Under the pieces are notes generated by a model, which saw only the letters and a program-made list of their open reading frames with translations, made no database searches and had not been told where the DNA came from. Made by a program: the position numbers and the translations under genes. Below are positions 49,831 through 63,427 of a stretch of DNA of 64,000 nt, piece after piece. Each line of letters starts with the position of its first letter. Position 1 is the first letter of the stretch. The stretch comes from an uncultured bacterium (GTDB lineage: Bacteria > Patescibacteriota > Saccharimonadia > UBA4664): the NCBI GenBank assembly GCA_963740635.1, contig CAVUEQ010000001.1, positions 740,840 through 804,839 on the forward strand, written 5' to 3'.

Positions 49831-50205
49831 TCAGTTGCAGACGTCGCAGTCAAAGAACGAATCGCAGAGGCTGTCGCCCCCCTGGCTGGCGGCGGTGATG
49901 CCGTAGTAGAAGAAGCCCAGGGCCCAGATCCAGGCTGAGCGCAGGACATGGGTGAGGATGGTGCCACAGATGAAGCGAGCGCCCTGGACGGCGCCGAACA
50001 TGCGCACAACCTGCAGAGCGCGGGTCGAGCAATTCTCGGTCCACCGGCGCTTGCAGAACTCCCGGCCGGCTGAGATGTACCGCTTGTACAGGCGGATGGC
50101 CAATGCCAGCGCCCAGGCCGCCGGCGTGCGGACTCTCTTGGCGCCATCAGGCATCGGGGGCAGGGGTGGCAGTTTGAACAGGTGATCCATTAGTGGTCGG
50201 GACAT
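49831..50205 (-). CDS. Hypothetical protein, weakly YidD-like (membrane protein insertion efficiency factor).
   Basis: AIRLYKRYIS...CKRRWTENCS loosely matches the YidD core. Overlaps the upstream ORF tail. Confidence 0.3.
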   Translation of the reverse strand: MSRPLMDHLFKLPPLPPMPDGAKRVRTPAAWALALAIRLYKRYISAGREFCKRRWTENCSTRALQVVRMFGAVQGARFICGTILTHVLRSAWIWALGFFYYGITAASQGGDSLCDSFFDCDVCN

Positions 50206-51079
50206 GACGCTTCCTCTTTTCGGATGGGATGGATCTGTCGGTAAGGCTGAGCACCTTCTTGCGCTCGGCCGTCATGTAAGGTTCGGCACCAAAAATGGGC
50301 CTAGGTAAGACCAACCTGGGTCGCGGCAGCAGCCGCAATTTTGGGCGGAGGTGCCGGCCAACTCGTGGATCGCTGGCGGCCAGCTTCACGGCTTGAAGCA
50401 TACACCACGCGAGGAGAACTCGCCGGTTCGATTTGCACGGCCGCACACGAGAGCGGCGATGGGTGAAATCAGTGCGCAGGTCGTACCAATGGTCCATGAT
50501 CACGCCGGCGGCCGTGATGTGGCCGAACGCTCGCACGAACCGGCCGTACGCCTGCTGGTCTGAGCGTTCTTCCGCGGTGGCGCATAGGCCGGCGAGACTG
50601 GCGGTCAGCCGGCTCTCGCGCCCCAGTACCCGGCCGTACATGAACACACTGCGCTTCCTGGCCTTGACGGGCGCCAGATCGGCGACGGACAGGGCCATGT
50701 CGACAAGTTCGTCCCGAGCGTCTTGGCCGAGCTCGCGCAGGGCATTGTTGCACAGAGCCATTAGCGGCGGCAGGTCTGGGTGGACCCATTCCGGGAACTC
50801 GCAGGCGAGCGGATCCTGGGCCTCCAATAGCTCTTGGTAGCATCTTCGCGCCTCCGCTTCCTGGCCAGGCGGATGCTCGTCGAGCAGCTCGTCGAGGCGG
50901 TAGGCCAGCGCCCAGATCCGCATCCAGCGCTCCTGGGTTTCGCTGCTGGGGTGAAGGCCGCACCAGCGCGCAAAGTAGTAGGCGTAAATCGCGATAGCGT
51001 ACCACCCGGGGTGGGAACGCCATACCGCCTCATACGGCAGCCCGGCGTCGCCTTTGAAATCGTGGTATTTCGCCCGCAT
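50147..51079 (-). CDS. Hypothetical protein, possibly with an isoprenoid-synthase (class I terpenoid synthase) fold. The C-terminal about 100 aa of the track ORF is probably out of frame or overlapping.
   Basis: Asp-rich motif RLDELLDE. Second motif GVIMDHWYDLRTD resembles the phytoene/squalene synthase NxxxD region. Confidence 0.35.
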   Translation of the reverse strand: MRAKYHDFKGDAGLPYEAVWRSHPGWYAIAIYAYYFARWCGLHPSSETQERWMRIWALAYRLDELLDEHPPGQEAEARRCYQELLEAQDPLACEFPEWVHPDLPPLMALCNNALRELGQDARDELVDMALSVADLAPVKARKRSVFMYGRVLGRESRLTASLAGLCATAEERSDQQAYGRFVRAFGHITAAGVIMDHWYDLRTDFTHRRSRVRPCKSNRRVLLAWCMLQAVKLAASDPRVGRHLRPKLRLLPRPRLVLPRPIFGAEPYMTAERKKVLSLTDRSIPSEKRKRHVPTTNGSPVQTATPAPDA

Positions 51080-51354
51080 GGCGGTTACCTCCTCTCAACA
51101 GGTCTCGTATCAAACAACTTCGATTAGAAATTTCGACCAGGCTACGATACAACTAAGTGCGAGGAATAGCAATCTACTCGCGGTCCGAATGTGCTGTTCT
51201 TTGTATGGGTGATTTGTGTGTTCCTGAATTGTTCGGTAAATGTTTGCTTATATACGAAGATGTACTAAAATGTAAGTACAAATGATTCGCTTTCCGAACT
51301 GTCACCGTATGGTGTGCGTGTCTGGGACATCCAGACTAGGAGGCGGATCGCTTG

Positions 51355-51972
51355 TTATTTAAAACGCCAAATATTTTCGATTCGTTTTTTAACTATTCGT
51401 TGATACTCATCATCGCCGGAATTGACAGTATGATAGATCGATCCGGAGAGCATGTCCGCTAGCTGGATCAGTACGTTCTCTTTTGAATCTACGAACCTTA
51501 GAGATTTGATTATTCTGTCATCTCCCTGATTGAGCTGAGCCCTCAAGTACGATCCAGCTGCTCGCTTATACGTTCTGTCGCCTCGTCCGTCGAGCTTAAT
51601 CTTGGCGTCGATAATTTTGCCTTTTGCATCTTTAAGCAACAACTTTATGGCATAGTTATAAAACGAAGCGCGGTTATGCTTAAGTTCCTCACTGTTGATG
51701 ATTGACTTATCAATTACCAGAGCTCGGACTCGGAAATTATTCCCGCTTACCCTTTTGAGAAATGCTTGTTTTGTTTGGGCGTTTGCTCTGTTGAAATGAA
51801 ATTCGTGGGAGTCCGGGCGCTTCAGCTCCCGTCTGAGTAATTTAATATCTACCGCAGTTTTCTCGGCAGCTAGATCATCCTCAAAGATAACCGCGACTAG
51901 TACGAAGTATTTTGTGGAGCCCCTGTTGATTTTAAAGCCAGCGTCGCCAGATTCATCGATAAAGACCAACAT
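51355..51972 (-). CDS. DUF3800 family protein, AT-rich, start 5 nt after the pcrA stop.
   Basis: MLVFIDESGD ... IQLADMLSGSIY are DUF3800 hallmarks. Followed by an about 270-bp AT-rich non-coding stretch. Confidence 0.7.
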   Translation of the reverse strand: MLVFIDESGDAGFKINRGSTKYFVLVAVIFEDDLAAEKTAVDIKLLRRELKRPDSHEFHFNRANAQTKQAFLKRVSGNNFRVRALVIDKSIINSEELKHNRASFYNYAIKLLLKDAKGKIIDAKIKLDGRGDRTYKRAAGSYLRAQLNQGDDRIIKSLRFVDSKENVLIQLADMLSGSIYHTVNSGDDEYQRIVKKRIENIWRFK

Positions 51973-51977
51973 CTGGC

Positions 51978-54302
51978 TTACTCGACCTTCTCGATGGGCG
52001 CGAAGCTGAGGCTGAGGCGCTTGGTGCCGAGGCCCTGGAAGGTGGCCGTGACTTCGTCGCCGGAGACGCCGGCCACAATGCCGTCGCCGAATTTGGTGTG
52101 GCGGATGCGGTCGCCGGGGGCGAGGTCGAGGCCGAGCATGGCCTCGCGGTGGTCGGCGGCAGCGGCCTCGGTGGTGGCGCCGGTGCCGTGCATGGGCTGC
52201 GGGCTCCAGCTGCCGGCGCCGGCGGCGTGTCCGGCAGCGGCGGTGGTAAGGCCGCGCGCGGTGGCGGACCATTCGCTGCCGGAATCCTGGAGCTCGGGCG
52301 GGATCTCGAGCAGGAAACGGCTGGGCGGGTTGTGGTTGGTGGTGCCGTAGAGCAAGCGCGAGTTGGCGTAGAGCAGGAACAGACGCTCTTTGGCGCGGGT
52401 GAAGCCCACGTAGCACAGGCGGCGCTCCTCTTCCATTTGCTCCCCGTCGAAAAGGGCTCTGGAATGCGGAAATATCCCCTCCTCCGCGCCCGGGATGAAC
52501 ACCACGGGGAATTCCAGCCCCTTGGCGGAATGCAGCGTCATGAGGGTGACGGCGTTGGACTCGGCGGAATAATTGTCGACGTCGGCGATGAGGGCGATTT
52601 CTTCGAGGAAGGCTTCGAGAGTGAGCTCGTTGTAGGTCTCGGCCACGCTGAGCAATTCTTTGACGTTTTCGATGCGGTCGGCGGCGGGAATGGAGCCGTC
52701 GTCGAGGAAGGTGAGGTAGCCGGAGCGCTTGAGCACGAGGCTGAGCAGCGGGCCGGTGGCGAGTTTTTGGCTCTCGGCGCGCAGGCCGTCGATGAGGTTG
52801 GCGAAGGCATGGAGGGAGTTGACCGCCTTGGGCTGCAGGCCGGGGCAGAGGTCGGCGCGGCGGCAGGCCTCGAGCAGGCCGATGGATTGCTGAGTGCGCC
52901 AGGACTCGAGCCGGTCGAGGCTGACCTCGCCGAGGCCGCGGGCCGGCAGGTTGATGATGCGGGCGAAGCTGGCGGAGTCGTCGGGCTGGTAGATGAAGCG
53001 CAGGTAGGCTAGCGCGTCTTTGATCTCTTTGCGCTCGTAGAAGCGGGTGCCGCCGATGATTTTGTATGGCATGCCGGCGCGCAGGAAGCCCTCTTCGAGC
53101 GACCGCGATTGGGCGTTGGTGCGGTAGAGCACGGCGAAATCGTAGAGCTCGCGTTTGTCGGCGGCCCGCAGCTGCTGAACGCGCGCCACGATAGTCTCGG
53201 CCTCCTGGATTTCGTTGTATACATTTATGATACCGATGCCGGTGCCGTCGCCGCGGTCGGTCCAGAGCTTTTTCTCACTGCGGACGCGGTTTTTGGTGAT
53301 GACGGCGTGGGCGGCGTCGAGGATTCGCTTGGTGGAGCGGTAATTCTGCTCCAGTTTGATGACTGTAGCTTGCGGGTAGTCCTTTTCGAAGTCGAGGATG
53401 TTCTGGAAATTGGCGCCGCGCCAAGAATAAATCGATTGCCAGTCGTCCCCAACTACACAAAGATTATGTGGTTTTGTCAAGGCCAGGAGTTTGGTTATTT
53501 GGTACTGGGCGTGGTTGGTGTCCTGGTATTCGTCGACTAAGATGTAGCGGAATTGCTGTTGGTATTTCGCTAGGATGTCCGGGTGGTCGCGGAACATTTG
53601 GACGGTGCGGAAAATGAGGTCGTCGAAGTCCAGCGCCCCGGCGTCGGTGAGGAGCTTTTGGTAGACGGGATACACTTTGGCGGCGGCCACTTGCGCCCGG
53701 CCGGTGGCGAGCTTGGTGTATTGGGCCGGGCTGATGAGCTCGTTTTTGGCGCTGGAAATGAGGTTTTGGATGAGGCTGGGGGTGAGCTGCTTGTCGTCGA
53801 TGCCGAGACCCCGCATGGCGCGCTTGATGGCGGACTGCGAATCGGCGGTGTCGAAAATGAGGAAATTAGAGGCCAGGCCAATGTCCGCCGCCTCGCGGCG
53901 CAGCAGTCGCAGGCAGATGGAGTGGAAGGTGCCGATGAACGGGAAGTAGCTGCGGCTCTCGGGGTCGCGGCCCAGCAGGCGCAGCACGCGGCCGCGCATT
54001 TCGCCGGCGGCCTTGTTGGTGAAGGTGACGGCCAGGATATTGACCGGCGGCACGTGCTTTTCGGCCACCAGGTAGGCCACGCGATGCGTGAGGGCTTTGG
54101 TTTTGCCCGAGCCGGCGCCGGCCAATATCAGCACCGGCCCCTCAGTGGTCTCGGCGGCGACGCGCTGCTGGTCATTGAGTTCTGACAGGAGTGGATGCAC
54201 TATCCGATGATACCGTAGATCGGCAGATCTTGCCCCGCCAGCGGTTTCAGTTAATAATGGCTTATCGCTCATCACCGGCACTTCTACAGAAAGAGAGACC
54301 AA
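51978..54302 (-). CDS. pcrA: ATP-dependent DNA helicase PcrA/UvrD (SF1) with a C-terminal Tudor-like domain.
   Basis: Walker A AGAGSGKT. Helicase motifs II-VI. C-terminal TKFGDGIVAGVSGDEVTATFQGLGTKRLSLSFAPIEKV. Confidence 0.9.
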   Translation of the reverse strand: MVSLSVEVPVMSDKPLLTETAGGARSADLRYHRIVHPLLSELNDQQRVAAETTEGPVLILAGAGSGKTKALTHRVAYLVAEKHVPPVNILAVTFTNKAAGEMRGRVLRLLGRDPESRSYFPFIGTFHSICLRLLRREAADIGLASNFLIFDTADSQSAIKRAMRGLGIDDKQLTPSLIQNLISSAKNELISPAQYTKLATGRAQVAAAKVYPVYQKLLTDAGALDFDDLIFRTVQMFRDHPDILAKYQQQFRYILVDEYQDTNHAQYQITKLLALTKPHNLCVVGDDWQSIYSWRGANFQNILDFEKDYPQATVIKLEQNYRSTKRILDAAHAVITKNRVRSEKKLWTDRGDGTGIGIINVYNEIQEAETIVARVQQLRAADKRELYDFAVLYRTNAQSRSLEEGFLRAGMPYKIIGGTRFYERKEIKDALAYLRFIYQPDDSASFARIINLPARGLGEVSLDRLESWRTQQSIGLLEACRRADLCPGLQPKAVNSLHAFANLIDGLRAESQKLATGPLLSLVLKRSGYLTFLDDGSIPAADRIENVKELLSVAETYNELTLEAFLEEIALIADVDNYSAESNAVTLMTLHSAKGLEFPVVFIPGAEEGIFPHSRALFDGEQMEEERRLCYVGFTRAKERLFLLYANSRLLYGTTNHNPPSRFLLEIPPELQDSGSEWSATARGLTTAAAGHAAGAGSWSPQPMHGTGATTEAAAADHREAMLGLDLAPGDRIRHTKFGDGIVAGVSGDEVTATFQGLGTKRLSLSFAPIEKVE

Positions 54303-54303
54303 G

Positions 54304-54648
54304 ATGCTGCGATTTATCCCCCTAATTGTCGTCGGCTGGATCGCCTGCGGGATGGCAGGCCAGGTATTGGCGGTTTACATCCACGGGGTCCAGACCAATC
54401 TGGAACGAGGGCTCAATGTGGCACTTGGGCTCGTGACCCTCCTGAGCGCCATCCGGCCGGCCATCCGCGTGAGTCGCGGCAAGTATTTGCGCTTCGTCGT
54501 CGTGGCGTTGAACGCCGAATACCACTTCGGGCAAGGACAGACCATTTGGGGTAGGAAGCGGGTTCGAACGCGAGCTTCAGGCTTCGCGGCCATCAAGAGC
54601 TACCGTGAGCAGCAACCCAGGGCGCAGAGCGCAGACGCCCGACAATGA
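54304..54648 (+). CDS. Small hypothetical membrane protein.
   Basis: 114 aa with two hydrophobic helices. Divergent from pcrA. Confidence 0.3.
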   Translation: MLRFIPLIVVGWIACGMAGQVLAVYIHGVQTNLERGLNVALGLVTLLSAIRPAIRVSRGKYLRFVVVALNAEYHFGQGQTIWGRKRVRTRASGFAAIKSYREQQPRAQSADARQ

Positions 54649-54712
54649 CCCCGTGAGGAGGCTCGACCCGGGACCCTTCGCGGGGTTTCGGCATTTTTGG
54701 GATCAGGCCGGT

Positions 54713-56248
54713 CTAATTGGCGTTGGTGAGTTCGAAGGTGGCCGTGGTGCAGGGCGCCACCGGGTTGATGACATTGGCCCCGGTGTCGGCGGCATTTTCG
54801 AGGCAGGCGGACAGGGTGTAGGTGGTGGCAGAATTGGCCGGGGTGTAGGTGTAGACGTAGGGCGATTTGCCGGTGGGGTCGGTGGGGATGGTTTTGAAGA
54901 TCGGCGGACTTGAGGCGTCGCCCTTGGTGAGATCGGCCAGCTTATTGGGGTACATATTATTGTTCACGAAATATTCTTCCAGCCCTTTGCGGATGGTGGT
55001 GAGGTCGGTTTTGCGCTGGGTGTCGTGGGCTTTTTGCTGCGCCGTGGCGGTGGTGTGCGGCACGTTGGTGCGGGTGGTGTCGGGGCTTTGGGTGTCATCG
55101 GTGCCGCCCTCGAAAGCCGTCAGCAATTCGGAGGCGTCTTTGGCGCCGGAGGGGGCTTCGATTTTGGCCGGCTGGTTGTAGGAGCCGGTATCGAAAGTTT
55201 CGGCGGTTTTGGACTTGGAATCGGAGGAGTCGGAGGTGCTCACCCGCAGGCGGTCTTTCGACCAGCCGCGCCAGAGGTCGTAACTGATCGTGAGGGTTTT
55301 GAAATCGTCGGCGGACAGGTCGAGTTGGCAGTCGGCAGGCAGTTTTTTGTTGGCGTCGTCGACGGCTTGCTTGATCTTGGAATTATCCACGGTACCAACA
55401 AAATGCAGCATGGGAGAGCCATTAATGGTCTCGATTCCCTTAAAGGCAGCTCCTTTCACCGGAATCCTGGTGAGGATTGAACTGCCGAATAAGGCGCCGG
55501 AATCTTTTTTGTTATCGAGGCACTTGTTGGCCGAGTCGCCGGACGAGCCGAGGTCGTATTTGTACCAGTCGTTGGGGATCTTCGTGGGGAAGAAGGCGGA
55601 GAGCAGGGAGAAACTCTCGATCTTAAAGTAGACTACTTGGGACAGCAGGCGGAGTTGGCCCGCGATAGAACCCTGGGAGGCGGGCGTGACGACGACGCCG
55701 GTCGAGGAAGATGTACCGTTAACGCTTACGTCGGCGGCCGGCTTGGATTTGTCGGTGAGGTCATATTTGCCCGACAGTTTGATGGAAAAACGGCCGCCGT
55801 CGTAGTCGTATGAGACGTCGGAGGCGAAGGTGGCGGTTTTGGCCGCGACGAGCCGGCCGAGATAGGCCGACAGGGCCGACTGCGGCGCCAGGAAGAACAA
55901 GTAACCCGCGGCGGCGGCGAGTCCGACCACCAGGAGGAGGCCGATGGTAAGCAGGAGGGCTTTGCGCGGGAAGCGGCGGCCGCGTTTTGGCTGCGGGAGT
56001 TCGCCGGGGCCGGATCCGGAGGTCAGCGGGGCCGGTTCGCCGGGGACGAAGGGGGCGGCTGCCGGGGTCGCGGCGGGAGTTGGCGCGGGGGCTGGGTCTG
56101 TGACAGCCGGCGCCGGCTGCCCGGTTGGAACCGGCTGCCCGGCCCGGTCAGCGAGCCCGGCCGGGCCTGGTTCCAGGTGGCCGCACGCCAGACACAGCCA
56201 CCCGCGGGCAGATTGGGTCATATCGTGGCCGCATTGGGTGCATTTCAT
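54713..56248 (-). CDS. Zinc-ribbon / Pro-rich linker / single TM / extracytoplasmic domain ending in a type IV pilin/pseudopilin-like globular domain (paralog 1).
   Basis: N-terminal MKCTQCGHDMTQSARGWLCLACGH (CxxC-x13-CxxC). TM LLLTIGLLLVVGLAAAAGYLFFL. C-terminal DTQRKTDLTTIRKGLEEYFVNNNMYP...PTDPTGKSPYVYTY is a GspG/pilin-like signature. Confidence 0.7.
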   Translation of the reverse strand: MKCTQCGHDMTQSARGWLCLACGHLEPGPAGLADRAGQPVPTGQPAPAVTDPAPAPTPAATPAAAPFVPGEPAPLTSGSGPGELPQPKRGRRFPRKALLLTIGLLLVVGLAAAAGYLFFLAPQSALSAYLGRLVAAKTATFASDVSYDYDGGRFSIKLSGKYDLTDKSKPAADVSVNGTSSSTGVVVTPASQGSIAGQLRLLSQVVYFKIESFSLLSAFFPTKIPNDWYKYDLGSSGDSANKCLDNKKDSGALFGSSILTRIPVKGAAFKGIETINGSPMLHFVGTVDNSKIKQAVDDANKKLPADCQLDLSADDFKTLTISYDLWRGWSKDRLRVSTSDSSDSKSKTAETFDTGSYNQPAKIEAPSGAKDASELLTAFEGGTDDTQSPDTTRTNVPHTTATAQQKAHDTQRKTDLTTIRKGLEEYFVNNNMYPNKLADLTKGDASSPPIFKTIPTDPTGKSPYVYTYTPANSATTYTLSACLENAADTGANVINPVAPCTTATFELTNAN

Positions 56249-56274
56249 ATTGGCTAAGGGTTAGAAACCCGGTC

Positions 56275-57996
56275 TCACTTTACGTCTACGCAGTATGGAG
56301 CGGCGGCGCCGTCGAGCAGGGTGTAGAGCGCTAGGTAGCGGGTGCCGGTGGCGCCAGGCGTGTGGGCGGGGCCGGTGCAGGAGCCGCCGGGCTGGTACTG
56401 GATTTGGCCGGCCGCGGTGGGGGCTGTCTTGGCTACCACGTAGGGCTGGCCGGTGCCGGGATCAGTTGCGCTAACTGAGACGGCCGGCGGGTTGACGGGG
56501 TAGAAACCGTTTTTGCTAATGGCCTTGTAGGCCGCGGCGAAGGCGGCCAGGTCTGATTGGCGCTGGGCATTGGCCGCGGCCACATCCGGGGTGGGGACGG
56601 GAGTGGGGGTGGCGTCTGAGCCGAGCACGCTCGAGCCGGTGTCGCTGGTTTTGGGCGTGGGAGTAGGCGCCGGCGAGGGGCTCGACGGCTTGGCGATAAT
56701 CATGAACACCGCGCCGCCGCCGATGAGCAATAGCACGGCAAACGTGGCAATTAACGCGAGCTGGCGCCCGCGCGAGAGGGGCTGAGGGTGCGTGACCGGC
56801 TGCACCGGGGGCTTGGCGGGCTGCGGCGCCGACGAGGCCAGCGGGGCCGGGGGCGGGGTTCCGGGGGCCGGTGCGGACGGTGCCGCTGGAGTAGCCGGCG
56901 GTGAGACCTCGGGGGTGGCGGGCTCGGATGGCGGGGCGGTCAACGTGGTGGCTTCGGGAGTGTCGGTCTGGGCCTCGGGGGCTGCGGGAGGCTCTGGGGC
57001 CGCCGGCGTGTCCGGAGCGGGCGGCGCGGCATCCTCCGACTCAGCTGGTTTTTCGGGTTCGTCCTCCCGTTCAGCGGCTGGGTCTTCGGACCCGGCAGTT
57101 CCGTCAGGTTTATCTTCATCTTGGCCGGCCGGAACGGGCTTATCCTCTTCTTCGGCGGCAGGACTGTCTGCGTCTGGCTTCTCAGCGCCCCCGGCCGGAT
57201 TCGTGTCTTCTTCGGCCGGCTCGGTGTCTTCTTCGGCCGGCTCCGCATCCTTATCGGACTCCTCCGGCTCCTTGGCATCCGTCTCGGGCGTGGCATCGGG
57301 ACCGGCGGTGGTTTCGGCGCTGGCAGCGTCAGCAATTGCGGCCACGGCGGCCACGGCCGGGCTGGAAGACAAGGCCGTTTGCGGCTCGAGAGTTTCGTTG
57401 GCCTCGGGCTCGGGCTCGGCCTTGGCTGCGCCTTGCAGCTCGGCGATCGACTCTTGCAAGACCTTTTCGGGCGGCTCGTCTACATCTGTGACCACCGCCG
57501 CCGGTTCGGCTGCGGCTTCGGCCACGGGTGTTTTGTCGGCCTCAGGCGGTTCGTCAGCTTCGGGCTTGTCAGTTTCGGGCTTGCCGGTCTTCAGCAGTTT
57601 GTCATCACCATGCGTTTTGATCACGGCCGCGGGCTTGTCATCATCTTCTTTGGATTCGTTTTCATCGACCTTTTCGGCCTCGGGCTCATCGGATTTATCG
57701 GCCTCATCGGGCTTATCGACCTTCTCGACCTTCTCGGCCTCATCGGGTTTCTCGGGCTCATCAGGTTTCAGTGGCTCTTCTGGTTCGTCGGATTTTGCCG
57801 GTTCGTCAGCTGTTGCGGGTTCCGGGTCCGGCTTCGGCGCATCGTGCCCGTGCAGGATCGGGGGCATGGCGTCTTCAATTTTCTGCTTGTCAGCGTCGCT
57901 CAGGATTTCGACATGACCGCATTCCATGCATAACCAGCCGGCTTTCGACTGGACCATTTCGTTGCCGCAATTTGAGCACTTCATGGAATCAAGCAT
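56275..57996 (-). CDS. Zinc-ribbon / about 350-aa acidic Pro/Glu/Asp-rich disordered region / TM / pseudopilin-like C-terminal domain (paralog 2).
   Basis: MKCSNCGNEMVQSKAGWLCMECGH. TM LALIATFAVLLLIGGGAVFMII. C-terminal AQRQSDLAAFAAAYKAISKNGFYP...ATDPGTGQPYVV. Confidence 0.7.
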   Translation of the reverse strand: MLDSMKCSNCGNEMVQSKAGWLCMECGHVEILSDADKQKIEDAMPPILHGHDAPKPDPEPATADEPAKSDEPEEPLKPDEPEKPDEAEKVEKVDKPDEADKSDEPEAEKVDENESKEDDDKPAAVIKTHGDDKLLKTGKPETDKPEADEPPEADKTPVAEAAAEPAAVVTDVDEPPEKVLQESIAELQGAAKAEPEPEANETLEPQTALSSSPAVAAVAAIADAASAETTAGPDATPETDAKEPEESDKDAEPAEEDTEPAEEDTNPAGGAEKPDADSPAAEEEDKPVPAGQDEDKPDGTAGSEDPAAEREDEPEKPAESEDAAPPAPDTPAAPEPPAAPEAQTDTPEATTLTAPPSEPATPEVSPPATPAAPSAPAPGTPPPAPLASSAPQPAKPPVQPVTHPQPLSRGRQLALIATFAVLLLIGGGAVFMIIAKPSSPSPAPTPTPKTSDTGSSVLGSDATPTPVPTPDVAAANAQRQSDLAAFAAAYKAISKNGFYPVNPPAVSVSATDPGTGQPYVVAKTAPTAAGQIQYQPGGSCTGPAHTPGATGTRYLALYTLLDGAAAPYCVDVK

Positions 57997-58037
57997 ACCA
58001 TAACTCTTATGCTACGTTTAGCAAGGCTGGCAAGTGA

Positions 58038-58499
58038 TCAGAAACTGGGGTTAATGTCGATCCGGTCGAGGCCGTGATCTTCGAGCTCTGCCCGGTAGCG
58101 TTCTTCGTGCGGACGCAGATCGAGCAGGTCATCATCGCGGTTTACATGGTCGGCGTCGACGCCGCGCTCGCGGGCCAGGTCGCGCAGGGCCAAGCGCTCG
58201 GTCAATTCATCCCAAAAGGTGTGGTCGTCGTAGTCTAGGATATAGTCGTCGTAAAGCCGCTCGGTCCACTCCGACTTCATGAAATATTCACCGGTTTCGG
58301 CATCGAGGTCAACGTCGGGGAGCTTGTGGTCCGCCAACAGTTTCTGGACGGTTTTGGTGGCGTCTTCATCCTGGAACTCAGTGTCGTGCTGAGCATTAAT
58401 CATCCACTCGCCGAGGTAGGCCAGCTCCACCAGCTTGCGAAATTCCTCAGATGTAAATTCTAATTTCACCACGGGCGCGGGCTCACTCTTTTTAAGCAA
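58038..58499 (-). CDS. Acidic cytoplasmic hypothetical protein.
   Basis: 153 aa, Asp/Glu-rich. No motif recognised. Confidence 0.45.
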   Translation of the reverse strand: MLKKSEPAPVVKLEFTSEEFRKLVELAYLGEWMINAQHDTEFQDEDATKTVQKLLADHKLPDVDLDAETGEYFMKSEWTERLYDDYILDYDDHTFWDELTERLALRDLARERGVDADHVNRDDDLLDLRPHEERYRAELEDHGLDRIDINPSF

Positions 58500-58538
58500 T
58501 GCGCCTATTTTAGACGATGTTGGGCTTGGTTGCGACTG

Positions 58539-59687
58539 TTAAAGGGCGCCGAGGCCGGCCAATGTGCCCGCCCCGGTGGGGCCGTCGTAGCCGGCGCCGG
58601 CCCGGCAGAGGTAACTTGAGCAGCTACCGGTGACGCCGGAGGTGATGTCATGGAGCCGGCTTGTACCGAGGGAGCCGTATAGGCGGCTGAACAGCGTGGT
58701 CTGCGACACCGGACCGGCGAGACCGATGAGGCCTGCCACCAGCGGAGCCGCCAGGCTGGTGCCGCCGACCGTGAACCAACCGGCGCCATTCGGGCTGGTA
58801 CCCGTGTAGATCGCCGCGCCGGTGGCAGGGTCGGCATCGGCGGAAACGTCGGCCATGGTGCGCCGGGCGCAGCCGGCGTCGTGCTGCCAGGACGGCTTAG
58901 CCTCGTATTTGCTGCAGCCGGACCCTGAACCGGCCCAAGCGGTTTCGCCGGCGCGCGCTCCACCGGGGGCGAGAGCGAGGCGCGTGCCCCCGACTGCCAC
59001 AACCCGGGGAGATGCTGCCGGCCAGCTGGTGCCGTAGCCCGAGTCGCCGGATGATGCCACGAAGTCGACATTAGTTGGAAAGTGGGCGTCAGAGCTGATC
59101 TCGGAGGCGGTTTCTGATCCGCCCCAGGACATAGAGACGATTTGCGCGCCGGATCGTACTGCCTGGTCGACGGCGGCAATGAGGTTGGCGGTGGAGGCGG
59201 TTGTAGCCTGGACGAGCTCTATGCGGCACCCGGGACACACAGCGTGTGCGGCCTCCACGTCGAGCGCGGTCTCAACCGCCCACCCTTTGTTGGTCGAGGG
59301 GTAGTGCCGTCCGCCGGACTGATCGGTCTTTTCGAAACAGCCCGTTTGCGACTGGCTGGTGCAAGCCGGCATCACCGGCAGACGGAAAACGCGGCTGTAG
59401 TTGTCGAGGTCGGCTTTGATGGTGGGGTCGCCATAGGCGTCCACGATGGCGATTTTGGCCGAACCGGAGCCGGCGGCGCCATAGGCGGAGCGGAAATTCG
59501 CCGGGGTGTAACCGGCTGGACCGCCGGCCGGGTTGGCCGACAGTACCTGGGCAAAACAGCCGGCCCGGGTGGATGTGGGCTGGCTGCATTGAGCGACCGG
59601 TGTGGCAGCCGCGGCGGCGCGAGGAACCAGATTAATTGTGAGACTGGAAAGGATGGAACAGAGGATCAGAAAAGCACGGATGGTCAT
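58539..59687 (-). CDS. Secreted S53 (sedolisin-like) family serine peptidase.
   Basis: Signal peptide. ETALDVEAAH (catalytic Glu region), SGDSG, GGTSLAAP (Ser) motifs. Confidence 0.7.
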   Translation of the reverse strand: MTIRAFLILCSILSSLTINLVPRAAAAATPVAQCSQPTSTRAGCFAQVLSANPAGGPAGYTPANFRSAYGAAGSGSAKIAIVDAYGDPTIKADLDNYSRVFRLPVMPACTSQSQTGCFEKTDQSGGRHYPSTNKGWAVETALDVEAAHAVCPGCRIELVQATTASTANLIAAVDQAVRSGAQIVSMSWGGSETASEISSDAHFPTNVDFVASSGDSGYGTSWPAASPRVVAVGGTRLALAPGGARAGETAWAGSGSGCSKYEAKPSWQHDAGCARRTMADVSADADPATGAAIYTGTSPNGAGWFTVGGTSLAAPLVAGLIGLAGPVSQTTLFSRLYGSLGTSRLHDITSGVTGSCSSYLCRAGAGYDGPTGAGTLAGLGAL

Positions 59688-59770
59688 CGGGAAACTCCAT
59701 TAGTGTCCCGATGTTCGCTCTTTGTTCGGCTTTTGTCAATGCTTTTTTCAGATGGGCTTGGTTGCGACTG

Positions 59771-60956
59771 TTAAAGCGCGCCCAGGCCGATGGGGGCGCC
59801 CACGCCGGTGGGGCCGTCGTAGCCGGAGACGGCAGTGCAGAGGTAGGCCGGGCTGCAGGAGCCGTTGCTGCCGGAAGTGACGTCGTAAAGGCTCGAGGCG
59901 CTGGAGGATCGAGTAGAGCTTATCGAGCACGGCCGATTGGTCGCCGTCACCGGCGAGACTCACGAGCGAGGCGATGAGGGGCGTCGACAAGCTGGTGCCG
60001 CCCACCTGGAACCACCCGCTGCCGTAGGGCGTGTAGCTGGCGTATATGGCGGCGCCGGTGGCGGGGTCGGCCACGGCCGCGACGTCGGCGACGGTGCGCT
60101 TCGAGCAGCCGGCGTCGTGCTGCCTGGCCGGCTTGGCCTCGTAGGCGCTGCAGCCGGAGCCGCCGTCGGACCAGGCGGTTTCGGTGTCGCGGCCGCCGAG
60201 TGAGTTCAGTGTGAGGCTGGTGCCCCCGGCCGCGATCACCCGCCCGCTAGCCGCCGGCCAGCTGGCGCCGTAGCCCCAGTCGCCAGTGGCGGCCACGAAG
60301 CTGACGCCGGTGGGGGCGAAGTGCGAGTCGTAGGCGGTTTCGCCGGACCACTCGTCCGCGCCCCAGGACATGGAGACCACGGTGTTGCCGAGGGTGGCGG
60401 CGCGGTCAACCGCTACCATGAGGTTGTTGATGGAGGAACTGCGGGCCTCAATGAGGTCGATGCGGCAGGTGGGGCAGACGGCGTGCACGGTTTGGACGTC
60501 GAGCGCGCTCTCAAACGCCCAGCCCCGGTTGCGCTGGGGGTAGAAGGTGCCGCCGCTCTGGTCGAATTTGGCGAAGCAGCCGGTGGTGACTTTGCGGCTG
60601 CAGTTGGGCAATACCGGCAAGCCGAAGGTGGTGGAGTATTTGTCGAGGTCGGACTTGGCGTAGGGATTGTCGTAGGCCACCACCACCGCCACGCGGCCGC
60701 CGCTGCTATCGGGCACTTTGTAGGCGCTGCGGAGTTGGGCCGGGCTGAGGCCGGGGGGCAACGTAGCCGCGGGCGTTACTTTGCCGTCGGGGCGGGCGCG
60801 GACCTTGGCCAGGCAGGCCACGTCTCCCGTGCTGGCGGCCGAGCACACGGCCAGGTTGCGCTGCACATCATGACCAGGAGTATTATGGCTCTGCGGAGCC
60901 GCAAACGGCAGCCATGATGTTAATAAGACGAGGGCAGAAACGACTTGATGTACCAT
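59771..60956 (-). CDS. S53 peptidase paralog, a tandem duplicate, with a C-terminal frameshift near about 59885. The start codon overlaps the tpiA stop (TAATG).
   Basis: ESALDVQTVH, TGDWG, GGTSLSTP motifs. After LDKLYS the frame shifts; the alternate frame gives ...DVTSGSNGSCSPAYLCTAVSGYDGPTGVGAPIGLGAL*, matching paralog 1. The 3' flank GGGCTTGGTTGCGACTGTTAAAG is shared with paralog 1. Confidence 0.7.
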
Positions 60957-61714
60957 TATTTTTTATACCCCTGTACAGCTTTAACAATTTTGGAAAACTC
61001 GGCAAAATTTAAACTGGCGCCGCCCGGCAGCAGCCCCATCACACCATCGATGCCCAAGATGGCCGGGACGAATTCGGAGGCCACACTGGCGCCATAGATT
61101 ACTTGGACGCCGGCGCTGGCAGCCTCCCCGTAGAGCTCCTCGATGGTGGTACGGATAGCGGAGATGGCCGGCCGGATTTGCTCAGGTGTAGCGGGCGTGC
61201 CGCTGCCGATGGCCCAGACCGGCTCGTAGGCCACCACGATCTTGGCGACGTCCTCGTCGGTCAGCATTACCAGATTCGCGGTCAGCTGGCCGGTGACAAC
61301 TTTTGTGGACAGGCCGTGGTGGCGGTCGTGGAGGTTCTCGCCCACGCAGAGGACCGGAGTGAGGCCGTTGCGAATAACGGCCGCGAGCTTCTGGGCGATG
61401 AGGGCGTCGGTTTCGCCGAGGGCGCGGCGCTCGGAATGGCCCACGATGACGTATTGCGCGAGCCCGCGGAGCATGGCGGCGGAAATTTCGCCCGTGTAGG
61501 GGCCTTCGTCGAGGTGGTGGGCGGTTTGGGCGCCCAGCTTAAACTTCTTGTGGTCGATTTCTTTGGACAGCGGGTAGAGGTCAATAAACGGGGCGCATAG
61601 CACCACTTCGGTGCCCGGCTTGGCCTCAATGTGTTCGTCGAGCCGACCAACGAGCAAGCTGGCCTCCCCTGGGCCAAGGTGCATCTTCCAGTTGCCTACG
61701 ACTAAGCGTTTCAT
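60956..61714 (-). CDS. tpiA: Triosephosphate isomerase. Start taken at the internal Met MKRLVVGNWKMH.
   Basis: VVGNWKMH. Catalytic AYEPVWAIGSG. Confidence 0.9.
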   Translation of the reverse strand: MKRLVVGNWKMHLGPGEASLLVGRLDEHIEAKPGTEVVLCAPFIDLYPLSKEIDHKKFKLGAQTAHHLDEGPYTGEISAAMLRGLAQYVIVGHSERRALGETDALIAQKLAAVIRNGLTPVLCVGENLHDRHHGLSTKVVTGQLTANLVMLTDEDVAKIVVAYEPVWAIGSGTPATPEQIRPAISAIRTTIEELYGEAASAGVQVIYGASVASEFVPAILGIDGVMGLLPGGASLNFAEFSKIVKAVQGYKK

Positions 61715-61806
61715 GTTCCCCGTTATGATAACGCTTATGTAGAAATGTGTCGATCTGTTCTTGAAACCCGGCGCCGTTCCCACAAAGCGGGTTGCCAATT
61801 CCTCAA

Positions 61807-61870: not shown

Positions 61871-62392
61871 ATGAGACTGGCTGACAGAAATATTTATAAA
61901 CCGCCACTGGATCCGACCACGCTATATGTGCTCCTGGCACTAGTAGATAGTGACCGGCATGGGTACGGAATACTGAATCGGGTGTGGAACTTGTCGCGGT
62001 CGGCTGTACAGCTCAAAACGGGCAATCTGTATCCGCTACTGGAGCGATTGGTGAGGGCTAGGTTAATCGAGGGGGCGGGCGCGAGGCCAACGCGGCACTC
62101 GGAGCTACCGAGGAAGCACTACACACTCACGAAAATGGGAATGATCCTATTAAAGGCGGAGCTCCAGCGTATGCAATATGTGGTGGCGGTCGGCGAATCA
62201 GAGGGACTGTTTGGCGATAAGGTGCCGCTCGATATTCAGGCGCTACTTGTCGAGCAGGGCCTCGAGGCCGGGAAGCTTGTTGCCGCTCATGAGCTCGAGG
62301 CTGGCACCGCCGCCGGTAGAGACCCAGGTGAATTTGTCGTGGAGGCCGGCGCCGTCCACGAAGCCGGCCGTGTCGCCGCCGCCGATGATTGA
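61871..62392 (+). CDS. PadR-family transcriptional regulator (paralog of 20109..20513). The 3' end is uncertain because the ORF runs into the antisense of pgk.
   Basis: LYVLLALVDSDRHGYGILNRV...GNLYPLLERL is a PadR signature. C-terminus VPLDIQALL parallels MPLDLQRL of paralog 1. Confidence 0.6.
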   Translation: MRLADRNIYKPPLDPTTLYVLLALVDSDRHGYGILNRVWNLSRSAVQLKTGNLYPLLERLVRARLIEGAGARPTRHSELPRKHYTLTKMGMILLKAELQRMQYVVAVGESEGLFGDKVPLDIQALLVEQGLEAGKLVAAHELEAGTAAGRDPGEFVVEAGAVHEAGRVAAADD

Positions 62393-63427
62393 GATGGCGC
62401 CGGGCAGCTTGATGATGGCCTCGGCCATGGCCTCGGTGCCGGCGGCAAATTCCGGCACCTCGAATTTGCCGAGGGGGCCGTTCCAGATGACAGTGCACTT
62501 ATTGTCGAAATCGAGAAACGCGTAGACGGCCGGGCCGAGAGTAGCGGCAAAGGCCGGCGCGACGTCGGCGATGTAGTCATCATCTTTGACGGCGGCGAGC
62601 TTCACCGTGCGCACGTCTTTGGCTTCGTCGAGCGATTTTGACACCACCACGGTGTCGGGCAGGAAAAGTTGGCAGTCTTCTTTGGCGGCCAATTTGAGCA
62701 GGCGGTTGCACTCTTCGACGAGGTCGGGTTCGGCCAGGGATTGGCCGATCGCGTGGCCTTGGGCCAGGAAAAACGTGTTGGCCATGGCTCCGCCGAGAAA
62801 GAGCGCATCGACCTTGGGGATGAGGTTTTCGAGCACCGGCACTTTGGTCGACACTTTGGCGCCGGAGATTATGGCCACGAGCGGGCGGTTGGGGTGCTCG
62901 AGTTTGCCCTGGATGTACTCCACCTCTTGTTCGACCTGCAGCCCCGACACTGCCGGCAGGTGCTTGGGGATGCCCACGATGGAGGCGTGCTCGCGGTGTA
63001 AGGTGGTGAAGTCGTCCTCCACGAAAAGGTCGCCGAGCGCGGCGATGGCTTTGGCGAAGCCGGCGTCGTTGGCCTCCTCTTCCGGGTGGAAGCGCAGGTT
63101 TTCCATCAACAGGACGTCGCCGGGTTGGAGGGCTTCGGCCGCAGATTTGGCCTCGTCTGAGAGCACATCGGCCACAAATTTCACGGGGCGGTCCAAGAGC
63201 TTCTGGAGTACCGGCGCCACCGGGGCCAGGCTGGTCCCCTCTTTGCTGTGGTGGCTGAGCAGTATTAGAGAGGCGCCATGATTGAGGAGATACCGGAGCG
63301 TAGGCAGTTCAGCTTTAATGCGGAAATCGTCGGTAACCTGGCCGTCCTTAATGGGAACATTGAATGGGACGCGAACCAGTACTTTCTGGTCTTTAACGTC
63401 GATGTCGCGGATAGTTTTTTTAGTCAT
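62243..63427 (-). CDS. pgk: Phosphoglycerate kinase.
   Basis: RVPFNVP N-terminus. Hinge and nucleotide-binding motifs (GGGASLELM...). 394 aa. Confidence 0.9.
   Translation of the reverse strand: MTKKTIRDIDVKDQKVLVRVPFNVPIKDGQVTDDFRIKAELPTLRYLLNHGASLILLSHHSKEGTSLAPVAPVLQKLLDRPVKFVADVLSDEAKSAAEALQPGDVLLMENLRFHPEEEANDAGFAKAIAALGDLFVEDDFTTLHREHASIVGIPKHLPAVSGLQVEQEVEYIQGKLEHPNRPLVAIISGAKVSTKVPVLENLIPKVDALFLGGAMANTFFLAQGHAIGQSLAEPDLVEECNRLLKLAAKEDCQLFLPDTVVVSKSLDEAKDVRTVKLAAVKDDDYIADVAPAFAATLGPAVYAFLDFDNKCTVIWNGPLGKFEVPEFAAGTEAMAEAIIKLPGAISIIGGGDTAGFVDGAGLHDKFTWVSTGGGASLELMSGNKLPGLEALLDK

Follow-up and report, generated by a model that had tools for sequence, protein, structure and literature searches.

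Six minus-strand genes lie close together in the window, a 64,000-nucleotide stretch of DNA from an uncultured Saccharimonadia (CPR) bacterium. They encode triosephosphate isomerase (tpiA), two S53 peptidases (S53a and S53b), an acidic protein and two proteins with an N-terminal zinc ribbon, a transmembrane (TM) helix and a C-terminal head, here called par2 and par1 (Table 1). Strand and coordinates of these open reading frames are as first claimed in an earlier note on this DNA, which was also right that the stop codon of tpiA overlaps the start of S53a (TAATG). The intergenic gaps from S53b through par1 are 26 to 66 nt. Since Pfam TIM matches the long tpiA ORF from residue 41 onwards, translation probably begins at the ATG at 61714. 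The earlier note had counted seven close-packed co-directional genes and read them as one operon joining pgk-tpiA to the rest. There are only six, since the gap of 528 nt between tpiA and pgk holds a plus-strand PadR gene, which overlaps the 3' end of pgk by 150 nt, and a promoter-like site, the top consensus match between 51500 and 64000. Because the opposite-strand PadR gene sits between pgk and tpiA, there is no seven-gene operon. The stretch from tpiA to par1 showed no convincing internal terminator on the minus strand. The GC-rich hairpin is placed between the par1 stop and a convergent plus-strand ORF of 114 aa (54304-54648), a gene that is called in locus L001 too. This hairpin is likely to be the end of the transcription unit.

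Table 1. Features of the tpiA-par1 locus and its surroundings, in window coordinates.
Feature	Coordinates	Strand	Description
GC-rich hairpin, terminator-like	54668..54691	.	10 pairs, T-run on plus strand
par1	54713..56248	-	ORF, 511 aa; zinc ribbon, short linker, TM helix, LprG/LppX-like domain, pilin head
par1 type IV pilin / GspG-like head	54716..55048	-	aa 401-511; invariant Cys482-Cys500 pair
par1 LprG/LppX/LprF-like (LolA-superfamily) domain	55145..55888	-	aa 121-368; invariant Cys243-Cys307 pair
par1 signal-anchor TM helix	55889..55960	-	aa 97-120, after KRGRRFPRK; Kyte-Doolittle peak 2.45
par1 C4 zinc ribbon	56183..56242	-	aa 3-22, CTQC-x12-CLAC; predicted cytoplasmic
par2	56275..57996	-	ORF, 573 aa; zinc ribbon, acidic linker, TM, Pro/Thr/Ser stalk, divergent pilin-like head
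par2 C-terminal head	56278..56577	-	aa 474-573; invariant Cys540-Cys569 pair
par2 TM helix	56695..56760	-	aa 413-434; Kyte-Doolittle peak 2.57
par2 acidic linker	56782..57906	-	aa 31-405; predicted cytoplasmic
par2 C4 zinc ribbon	57919..57978	-	aa 7-26, CSNC-x12-CMEC; predicted cytoplasmic
Acidic cytoplasmic protein	58038..58499	-	144 aa from GTG 58472, or 153 aa from TTG 58499
S53b, secreted sedolisin-like serine peptidase	58539..59687	-	382 aa; Pfam Peptidase_S8 2.4e-11; N-terminal hydrophobic signal
S53a, paralogous sedolisin-like peptidase, frameshifted	59771..60956	-	ORF as listed extends to 59748
tpiA, triosephosphate isomerase	60956..61714	-	Pfam TIM 5.8e-73
Promoter-like site TCGACA-17-TATCAT, upstream of tpiA ATG	61725..61753	-	consensus match only, 10/12
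PadR-family regulator	61871..62392	+	Pfam PadR 1.3e-13; NCBIfam padR 4.8e-13
pgk	62243-63427

The two adjacent peptidases are paralogues, as had been proposed (53% identity, E 2e-108). The best solved match of S53b was sedolisin (1nlu/1ga1, E 6e-16), and the E-x3-D, SGD and GGTS motifs of the sedolisins (MEROPS S53; sedolisin, kumamolisin) are invariant here. E139, D143, D215 and S311 (S53b numbering) are conserved in all 8 homologues and provide a Ser-Glu-Asp triad with an oxyanion Asp, catalytic roles that we take from knowledge of the family. Unlike sedolisins, the proteins are short (about 380-395 aa), one copy is frameshifted and the pro-kumamolisin prodomain (PF09286) is absent. Their sole Pfam match is Peptidase_S8, and the catalytic domain begins about 60 aa past the signal peptide. 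In S53a the reading frame shifts by 1 nt near 59903-59906; the conserved C-terminal end (ending in GYDGPTGVGAPIGLGAL) is encoded in another frame, with the true stop at 59771-59773.

It had been claimed that par1 and par2 share one architecture. Each does have a zinc ribbon and one TM helix, but par1 carries an extra LprG/LppX-like domain of about 250 aa and only a short linker. The ribbons are of the C4 type in both proteins, as described, with a spacer of 12 residues instead of 13, and are 62% identical over 26 aa (E 1e-11). In the AF2 model of par1, the ribbon is predicted to form short beta strands (residues 9-27), and a modelled helix (95-135) covers the TM segment. Many database entries begin at Met10, so that the first CxxC is lost. 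The long, disordered acidic linker of par2, rich in Pro/Glu/Asp/Ala, was confirmed: it spans 375 aa, of which A/P/E/D/K make up 72%, has a net charge of -74 and ends in a conserved juxtamembrane motif, PVQPVTHP (56785-56808). The pattern P-x-T-H-P directly precedes the TM helix in the window, in loci L002 and L005-L010 and in proteins P0006, P0011 and P0203. A K+R bias of 3.6 versus 1.4, found in 56 of 68 family members, indicates an N-in/C-out orientation, and all extracytoplasmic Cys are in conserved pairs. On these sequence grounds, par1 and par2 are predicted to be type-II bitopic membrane proteins, in agreement with the earlier idea that an internal signal-anchor TM helix carries the head.

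Ten full-length homologues of par1 are 37-57% identical to it, and its AF2 model has a pLDDT of 68.8. Par1 has no Cys beyond the four in the ribbon and the two pairs outside the membrane. The par1 head has the globular pilin fold, with alpha1-C packed on an antiparallel beta sheet, and is homologous to the heads of the type IV pilins of its own lineage. Its identity to the heads of true pilins is 50-60%; against prepilins from related organisms it reaches 58-60% (E 5e-30). Between the TM helix (97-120) and alpha1-C (403-430) lies the domain of about 250 aa, which has the LolA-like half-barrel fold of LprG and LppX. In mycobacteria, LprG and LppX are well-known carriers of triacylated glycolipids (PIM/LM/LAM), TAG and PDIM, which they bind; structure 3mha is that of LprG with bound PIM. 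By sequence, par1 scores 17.8 bits against Pfam LppX_LprAFG (PF07161), under the curated cut-off of 24, and a relative, P0177, passes that cut-off (25.5 vs 24). The closest family by sequence is NCBIfam SCO4651, of actinobacterial lipoproteins, against which par1 scores 39.6, under the cut-off of 65; the one paper found to mention SCO4651 is a study of the Streptomyces sigma-E cell-envelope stress regulon (PMC6767563). Unlike LprG, LppX, LprF, LprA (PF07161) and Streptomyces SCO4651, par1 has no lipobox Cys or lipoprotein signal peptide. Its N-terminus is the zinc ribbon, followed by the internal TM helix that replaces the acyl anchor. Moreover, its domain is fused to a pilin head and comes from CPR, not from Actinobacteria.

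For the par2 head, the claimed likeness to pilins was recovered for the N-terminal half only. This part is alpha1-C-like and aligned with the pilin-head profile in hhalign (probability 95.7%, E 1.1e-8, 49 columns), and the head gave no Pfam or PDB sequence match. It starts at residue 474, separated from the TM helix (413-434) by a P/T/S linker. Homologues of par2 were found in at least 13 loci, immediately 3' of the acidic gene. Neither protein has a G/FTLIE prepilin leader, as the earlier note had stated. The regular expression G[FYW][TS][LIV][ILVM]E had no match in any frame of the window or in zinc-ribbon family members, and par1 and par2 gave no N_methyl Pfam match; true pilins in the same match list do carry the leader. 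An alpha1-N helix continuous with alpha1-C, as in the pilin lollipop, is likewise absent from both. With neither leader nor alpha1-N, they would therefore escape PilD processing and pilus polymerisation, and presumably they are not polymerisable. A role as pilins was considered for both and rejected, since they have no class III leader, no continuous alpha1-N and no T4P/T2SS machinery genes within ±8-10 kb.

The globular head is what par1 and, over the N-terminal half of its head, par2 have in common with type IV pilins and T2SS major pseudopilins (GspG/EpsG/PulG; T2SSG PF08334 with N_methyl PF07963). Unlike these, they have no class III signal peptide (G-1/F+1/E+5), their heads come after an internal TM helix, at a distance of 280 aa in par1 and about 40 aa in par2, and this helix itself follows a cytoplasmic ribbon and linker, and their genes are outside T4P or T2SS loci. 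The modular or leaderless saccharibacterial pilins PilX1 and PilX2 of Nanosynbacter lyticus TM7x (PMC11623550) and the bimodular pilin PilB of Streptococcus sanguinis (PMC8179133) also combine a pilin module with an extra adhesive domain, and the thin T4P-2 pilus needs PilX2 to bind the host efficiently (PMC11623550). However, those proteins belong to T4P loci and keep the lollipop shape, in which the head bears the extra domain. In par1 these parts come in the opposite order (anchor, extra domain, head), a cytoplasmic zinc ribbon is added at the N-terminus and no T4P genes are nearby.

The locus was compared with about 30 related loci. They share a Saccharimonadia backbone of PGK, TIM, 0-2 S53 peptidases, a 143-aa acidic protein, 1-2 zinc-ribbon/TM/head proteins and then PcrA, and the conserved order runs on beyond PcrA. 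Housekeeping neighbours kept across Saccharimonadia include TIM, PcrA, a UMP-kinase-like AA_kinase and an RpfB-like DUF348/G5/SLT protein. The acidic protein and the zinc-ribbon proteins recur together as a unit of two or three genes whose place between TIM and PcrA is fixed. A head-bearing zinc-ribbon gene directly follows the acidic gene in 13 distinct loci; in one lineage (L037/L038), a zinc ribbon-linker-TM protein without a head is found there. The acidic protein (pI 4.4), encoded just upstream of the zinc-ribbon genes, is conserved and gave no fold match. It is not obligately coupled to the zinc-ribbon proteins, because three related lineages (L034, L036, L043) keep it with no zinc-ribbon gene before PcrA, and distant homologues (26-38% identity) occur in unrelated gene contexts.

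The S53 peptidases had been presented as an integral part of the system. About half of the related loci contain them, about 12 in the same slot. In about 14 others, TIM is directly followed by the acidic gene and the zinc-ribbon proteins are kept. Locus L029 retains an 81-aa S53 remnant, and S53a is frameshifted here. The S53 peptidases are dispensable to the zinc-ribbon unit; together with tpiA and pgk, they are its neighbours and not components. The PGK-TIM adjacency belongs to the conserved gene-order backbone of Saccharimonadia and is not evidence of a functional link.

The zinc-ribbon/TM/head architecture is kept in many independent metagenomic loci and therefore is no chance pattern. At 50% identity the family falls into at least 75 clusters, none of them annotated; this size depends on the threshold (75 clusters at E<1e-30, 439 at E<1e-10). 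The ribbon was recognisable in about 38 of 155 inspected members despite truncated start calls, and the family is unannotated partly because gene callers drop the first half of the ribbon. No description of the architecture was found in the literature, which bears out the initial impression of an undescribed family. Its modules are combined in several ways: the LprG-like domain is joined to a par2-type head in L010, P0140 and P0144, both head types occur in one protein (P0006), and in P0203 a par1-type head follows a zinc ribbon, linker and TM helix. These alternative fusions indicate that the modules belong together. In L008, L009, L025, L026 and L041 the par2-type gene stands alone, without the LprG-like domain, and which head type sits on the same scaffold differs between sub-clades. 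Finally, none of the loci for which called genes were available showed a T2SSE, T2SSF or Peptidase_A24 Pfam (T4P ATPase, platform or prepilin peptidase) within ±8-10 kb, and no prepilin or T4P machinery gene was found in the window neighbourhood or in any related locus examined.

CPR bacteria such as Saccharibacteria are attached to the host bacteria on which they live, and they have no lipid synthesis. CPR bacteria without lipid synthesis recycle the lipids of other bacteria (PMC8080830), and cultivated Saccharibacteria have Actinobacteria as their hosts (PMC10633639). The reading that we tentatively favour, although it falls somewhat short of an even chance, is that par1 and par2, recurring with the acidic protein, are tethered, non-polymerising proteins that expose a lipid/glycolipid-binding module and a pilin head on the surface. 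Both would be static tethered surface proteins. Par1 would most likely offer a lipid/glycolipid-binding cavity and a pilin-type binding surface on the cell surface. At the contact site it would bind lipids or lipoglycans from the envelope of a (probably actinobacterial) host and might import them as well. The par2 head would most likely be shown on its Pro/Thr/Ser stalk, long enough for wall crossing. The zinc ribbon and linker motifs would most likely recruit a cytoplasmic partner, for which the acidic protein is the obvious candidate.

A possible but unlikely alternative is a role in the cell's own envelope biogenesis, in which the LprG-like domain would shuttle lipids, lipoglycans or lipoproteins from membrane to wall and the head would serve as scaffold or wall contact, a housekeeping function with no direct part in the host interface. 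LprG and LppX in mycobacteria offer the analogy, and SCO4651, with its link to envelope stress (PMC6767563), and the conserved position amid TIM, PcrA, AA_kinase and RpfB-like genes point the same way. Indeed, the fixed position and vertical inheritance of the unit fit a self-directed role and a host-directed one equally. However, the five loci without the LprG-like domain and the three lineages without the gene disfavour an essential housekeeping role, and the pilin-close par1 head and the head swaps between sub-clades are more typical of diversifying surface-interaction modules.

Alternatively, the tethered heads could dock on pilins or the pilus base (as anchor, cap, primer, reservoir or decoy), with the zinc ribbon coupling the pilus to a cytoplasmic partner. 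The closeness of the par1 head to prepilin heads would suit such a type IV pilus accessory. Yet filament contacts in T4P and T2SS are made mainly through alpha1-N, the helix that is missing here, the par2-type head is by now very distant from pilin heads, and no prepilin or T4P machinery gene was found near the locus or in any related locus examined. Although TM7x PilX1 and PilX2 reportedly have no predicted PilD signal and still lie in T4P loci (PMC11623550), we consider this role improbable.

Improbable as well is a further host-directed reading, in which the acidic protein and the zinc-ribbon/TM/LprG-like/pilin-head proteins would make up a Saccharimonadia-specific contact apparatus. Its head would dock on the actinobacterial envelope, its LprG-like cavity would extract host lipids or lipoglycans (e.g. 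PIM/LM/LAM, phospholipids) for an epibiont unable to make its own, and its ribbon and linker would couple to an intracellular partner.

The initial model, a single co-transcribed surface system from pgk-tpiA through the S53 genes to par1 and par2, with the peptidases processing or remodelling the pilin-like proteins, is very unlikely. The tight spacing from tpiA to par1 with its TAATG overlap, the missing internal terminator and the recurrent S53 slot speak for it; against it stand the PadR gene and promoter-like site, the absence or decay of S53 genes where zinc-ribbon proteins persist, and the longer backbone to which PGK-TIM belongs. Least probable is an anti-sigma or one-component signalling device, in which ligand binding or proteolysis of the ectodomain would release or alter a zinc ribbon-acidic protein complex, given that the ribbon is C4 (CxxC-x12-CxxC) and not HxxxCxxC as in ZAS (zf-HC2), and that neither the acidic protein, itself without a fold match, nor its neighbours in related loci gave a sigma-factor or DNA-binding Pfam match.

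Altogether, the pilin head appears to have been reused in Saccharimonadia as a membrane-tethered, non-polymerising module, repeatedly recombined with an LprG-like domain and a zinc ribbon. Pilin surveys should be read with caution, since a T2SSG or pilin-head match without the N_methyl leader does not denote a pilus subunit. The family provides testable candidates for host-contact or lipid-handling proteins and, if the contact-apparatus reading were true, would give a molecular handle on membrane-lipid acquisition in CPR bacteria.

The C-terminal domain of par1, the zinc-ribbon membrane protein at one end of the gene cluster, is a pilin head. It scored 22.4 bits against Pfam T2SSG (cut-off 21), and a profile of the head matched the solved structures of GspG/EpsG (E 4e-7 to 1e-5). 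In an all-against-library profile search, leader-bearing proteins of 140-160 aa (…GFTLLELLIVIVIIG…ARDTQRKTDL…) matched the par1 head with E 5e-30 to 4e-22 and 50-60% identity; one of them is encoded in a tandem pilin locus and has a Pfam N_methyl hit. The head of the neighbouring paralog, par2, is more divergent. It has no Pfam match, its family profile found no sequence match in the PDB, and the comparison of that profile with the pilin-head profile (95.7% probability, E 1.1e-8) covered the alpha1-C helix and first strand only. Thus the pilin-like domain that the earlier note had assigned to both paralogs stands for par1 and, over these two elements, for par2.

Between the membrane and its head, par1 resembles mycobacterial lipid carriers. 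It matched the NCBIfam SCO4651 lipoprotein family (4.5e-10, 232/277 profile positions, under the cut-off) and Pfam LppX_LprAFG, with 17.8 bits in par1 itself and 25.5 in its relative P0177 (cut-off 24). The AF2 model of par1, computed from a 10-sequence alignment (pLDDT 68.8), predicts, from the N-terminus on, a small beta ribbon at residues 9-27, disorder over 30-92, a long TM helix spanning 95-135 and a beta-rich domain (138-353), then a C-terminal long helix (403-430) followed by three strands. Homology and fold are established for the par1 head and LprG-like domain, as are the domain composition, the missing leader and the linkage conserved between loci.

The two paralogs had been described as sharing one architecture. 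The N-terminal ribbon is common to both (62% identity over 26 aa, E 1e-11), as is a single TM helix, and par1 departs from the scheme by its large extra domain. Both ribbons read CxxC-x12-CxxC, not x13 as first reported. The par2 linker extends over 375 aa with a net charge of -74. Global alignment was uninformative on short conserved motifs in par2 linkers, as the disordered region does not align; only a P-x-T-H-P motif is claimed, which in the par2 lineage directly precedes the TM helix. Neither protein has a class III prepilin leader, as previously noted, according to a Pfam search and leader-pattern searches of the window frames and family members. Of 68 family members, 56 have more lysine and arginine on the N-terminal flank of the TM helix than on the other (mean 3.6 vs 1.4). 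All cysteines are either the four ribbon ligands or conserved ectodomain pairs (243/307 and 482/500 in par1, 540/569 in par2). Together, the missing leader, the K+R bias, the cysteine placement and the linker charge indicate an N-in/C-out topology, which would place ribbon and linker in the cytoplasm and the domains of LprG-like and head type outside. By the same sequence rules, the TM helix would be an internal signal anchor for an extracytoplasmic head, in agreement with the earlier note. Since the leader and alpha1-N are missing, par1 and par2 would be neither PilD substrates nor filament subunits; they would be tethered surface proteins.

The start that gene callers assign to these proteins is usually an internal methionine (Met10 in par1) or lies further in. 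A database entry 100% identical to par1 over 98% of the query begins at Met10. In entries P0001-P0005 and P0009 and in loci L005, L006 and L009, the truncated start costs the protein its first CxxC or its entire zinc ribbon, and the frame upstream of these called starts is open and always reads MKCxxC…. Therefore the ribbon is invisible in most public annotations.

Searched against 1.84 billion representatives at 50% identity, the full-length par1 profile matched 7009 proteins at E≤1e-3, of which 439 reached ≤1e-10 and 75 reached ≤1e-30. Among the best 155 matches, from which layouts were read, the recurring order was zinc ribbon, linker, TM helix and LprG-like domain, to which a head may be added; the linker varies in length, and the TM helix lies anywhere from residue 76 to residue 720. 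Other combinations also occurred. The LprG-like domain is joined to a par2-type head in L010, P0140 and P0144, both head types are present in P0006, and in P0203 the ribbon, linker and TM helix lead straight to a par1-type head. Heads were also found on other non-pilin anchors (P0207, P0216, P0217, P0222, P0237). In L015 (4105-5577) and L020 (2661-4037), the second gene places a par2-type head on the zinc ribbon-TM-LprG-like scaffold; in the window's clade, the head in that position (54716-55048) is the one close to true prepilins. The presence of par2-type and pilin-type heads on one scaffold suggests that head modules have been exchanged between zinc-ribbon genes and true type IV pilin genes. 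Neither defence-system nor phage libraries contained a match to par1, to par2 or to the acidic protein encoded beside them.

Related loci were collected from nine encoding contigs looked up for their neighbourhoods and from that of prepilin P0209, from one genome scan and from one metagenome scan, and were mapped with HMMs of the components. The metagenome scan used the acidic protein as query and gave 46 loci; the genome-contig scan with the par1 alignment gave only 3, its patterns being too narrow. In Saccharimonadia the order is PK/PGK, TIM, zero to two S53 peptidases, acidic protein, one or two zinc-ribbon proteins and PcrA/UvrD, followed, as in the window, by AA_kinase, a DUF348/G5/SLT protein, CvpA-trypsin and KsgA. 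The glycolytic genes are a portion of this conserved gene-order backbone. In the window, the ORFs of the earlier note were all recovered on the minus strand, and the stop of tpiA does overlap the start of S53a in TAATG. The proposed contiguity of pgk with tpiA fails, as the plus-strand PadR gene lies in the gap. The strongest promoter-like site of the region is immediately upstream of the tpiA ATG.

Features of the cluster and its borders in the window.
Feature	Position	Strand	Remarks
par1	54713-56248	-	511 aa; six-frame ORF list
par2	56275-57996	-	573 aa; six-frame ORF list
Acidic protein	58038-58499	-	pI 4.4; six-frame ORF list
S53b peptidase	58539-59687	-	Paralogue of S53a, 53% identical, E 2e-108
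S53a peptidase	59748-60956	-	ORF as listed; conserved C-terminus ends at 59771-59773 in other frame
tpiA	60956-61714	-	Pfam TIM 5.8e-73
PadR-family regulator	61871-62392	+	Pfam 1.3e-13; NCBIfam 4.8e-13
pgk	62243-63427	-	528 nt from tpiA
Membrane-protein ORF, 114 aa	54304-54648	+	Convergent with par1, between par1 and pcrA
GC-rich hairpin, 10 bp	54668-54691		T-run on plus strand; between stops of par1 and 114-aa ORF

The acidic protein is an uncharacterised family by itself. Its 205 clusters, of about 143 aa, have 36 invariant positions and 59-83% identity; its membrane-protein neighbours show only 37-57% and are thus far less conserved. It is predicted with confidence to be all-helical, and neither model nor profile gave a structural or profile match. 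A head-bearing zinc-ribbon gene directly follows the acidic gene in 13 distinct loci, and a headless zinc ribbon-linker-TM protein does so in the L037/L038 lineage. In three lineages (L034, L036, L043) PcrA follows it, with no zinc-ribbon gene. Distant homologues (26-38% identity) occur in unrelated gene contexts.

Both S53 peptidases are, on sequence grounds, sedolisin-like: their top solved matches were sedolisin 1nlu/1ga1 (E 6e-16), and E139, D143, D215 and S311 are invariant across 8 homologues. A Pfam search found the usual sedolisin prodomain in neither. S53a carries a 1-nt frameshift near 59903-59906, in a 'ctcc' context, after which the conserved C-terminus resumes in another frame up to a TAA stop. 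L001, an independent Logan assembly with the same sequence as the window, begins at 59870, 30-35 nt downstream of the frameshift, so the site falls outside it. The frameshift could be a genuine pseudogene, as S53 is decaying in L029 (an 81-aa remnant), or an assembly error. About 12 loci have S53 genes between TIM and the acidic gene; about 14 have none there, and several of these retain zinc-ribbon proteins. The S53 genes are therefore a frequent yet dispensable insertion, under loss in places, which fits the S53a frameshift, and are not integral to the system as had been proposed. Since S53 is dispensable and the acidic and zinc-ribbon genes co-occur, what recurs as a unit is the acidic protein with its zinc-ribbon protein(s).

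Several further features were observed around the cluster. The PadR ORF overlaps the 3' end of pgk by 150 nt, unusually long for convergent genes, and past about aa 110 it may be antisense read-through rather than real protein. Relatives have other inserts between PGK and TIM (L002 a 289-aa membrane protein) or none. In L005 and L006 another small protein, rich in Pro and with a TM helix at its C-terminus, takes the slot of the 114-aa ORF on the same strand. PcrA/UvrD contains an intein (Pfam Intein_splicing), which splits the helicase match, in L010 (10463-13918, 1151 aa) and L025 (8123-11425, 1101 aa); the window PcrA (774 aa) has none. Directly downstream of pcrA, a DUF3800 gene (51355-51900, minus strand; Pfam 5e-9, PADLOC candidate defence family PDC-M04A 5e-12, PHROG 9243), whose longest ORF overlaps the pcrA 3' end, lies inside the lowest-GC 2-kb block of the window (50001-52000, 0.549 vs about 0.62). 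Its N-terminal FxDESGD motif recurs in neighbours of distant acidic-protein homologues in L057, L058 and L060. An 810-aa ORF (46871-49303, minus strand) has as sole match a sub-threshold DUF2157 membrane protein (16.8 vs 32.4 bits).

LprG and LppX are mycobacterial carriers of acylated glycolipids and lipids, and structure 3mha shows LprG with PIM. CPR bacteria without lipid synthesis reuse the lipids of other bacteria (PMC8080830), and Saccharibacteria in cultivation grow on Actinobacteria (PMC10633639). On these grounds we tentatively favour a role of par1 and par2 in lipid or glycolipid binding and surface adhesion, probably at host contact, with ribbon and linker engaging a cytoplasmic partner, for example the acidic protein. 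The LprG-like domain might also serve lipid trafficking in the bacterium's own envelope, which we consider less probable. An accessory role in type IV pili is unlikely: the par1 head is like that of pilins, but alpha1-N is missing. The seven-gene system with S53 processing, for which the TAATG overlap speaks, is very improbable given the pgk-tpiA gap and the loci devoid of S53. An anti-sigma-like signalling device is the least probable reading.

The proteins resemble pilins in their head and, in part, LprG-type carriers, but par1 and par2 have no class III leader, no alpha1-N and no lipobox. As the defining tests of both families fail, we do not file them with pilins or LprG-type carriers. Among published cases, the closest are modular pilins (PilB of S. 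sanguinis) and TM7x PilX1/PilX2, which are reported to lack a predicted PilD signal (PMC11623550); all of these are encoded in T4P loci and have a lollipop layout. The Pam pilus of CPR bacteria, considered for its mentioned coupling to metabolism, was rejected as unrelated, its Ig-fold donor-strand pilins being encoded beside ATP synthase genes (bioRxiv 10.64898/2026.03.03.709456). Literature searches combining LprG/LppX with Saccharibacteria or Patescibacteria, or zinc ribbon with pseudopilin, found no paper, and no publication on the zinc ribbon/TM/head architecture was found, in agreement with the earlier note. Altogether, these proteins form a conserved, unannotated family across Saccharimonadia, whose importance would be high only if they do bind host lipids.
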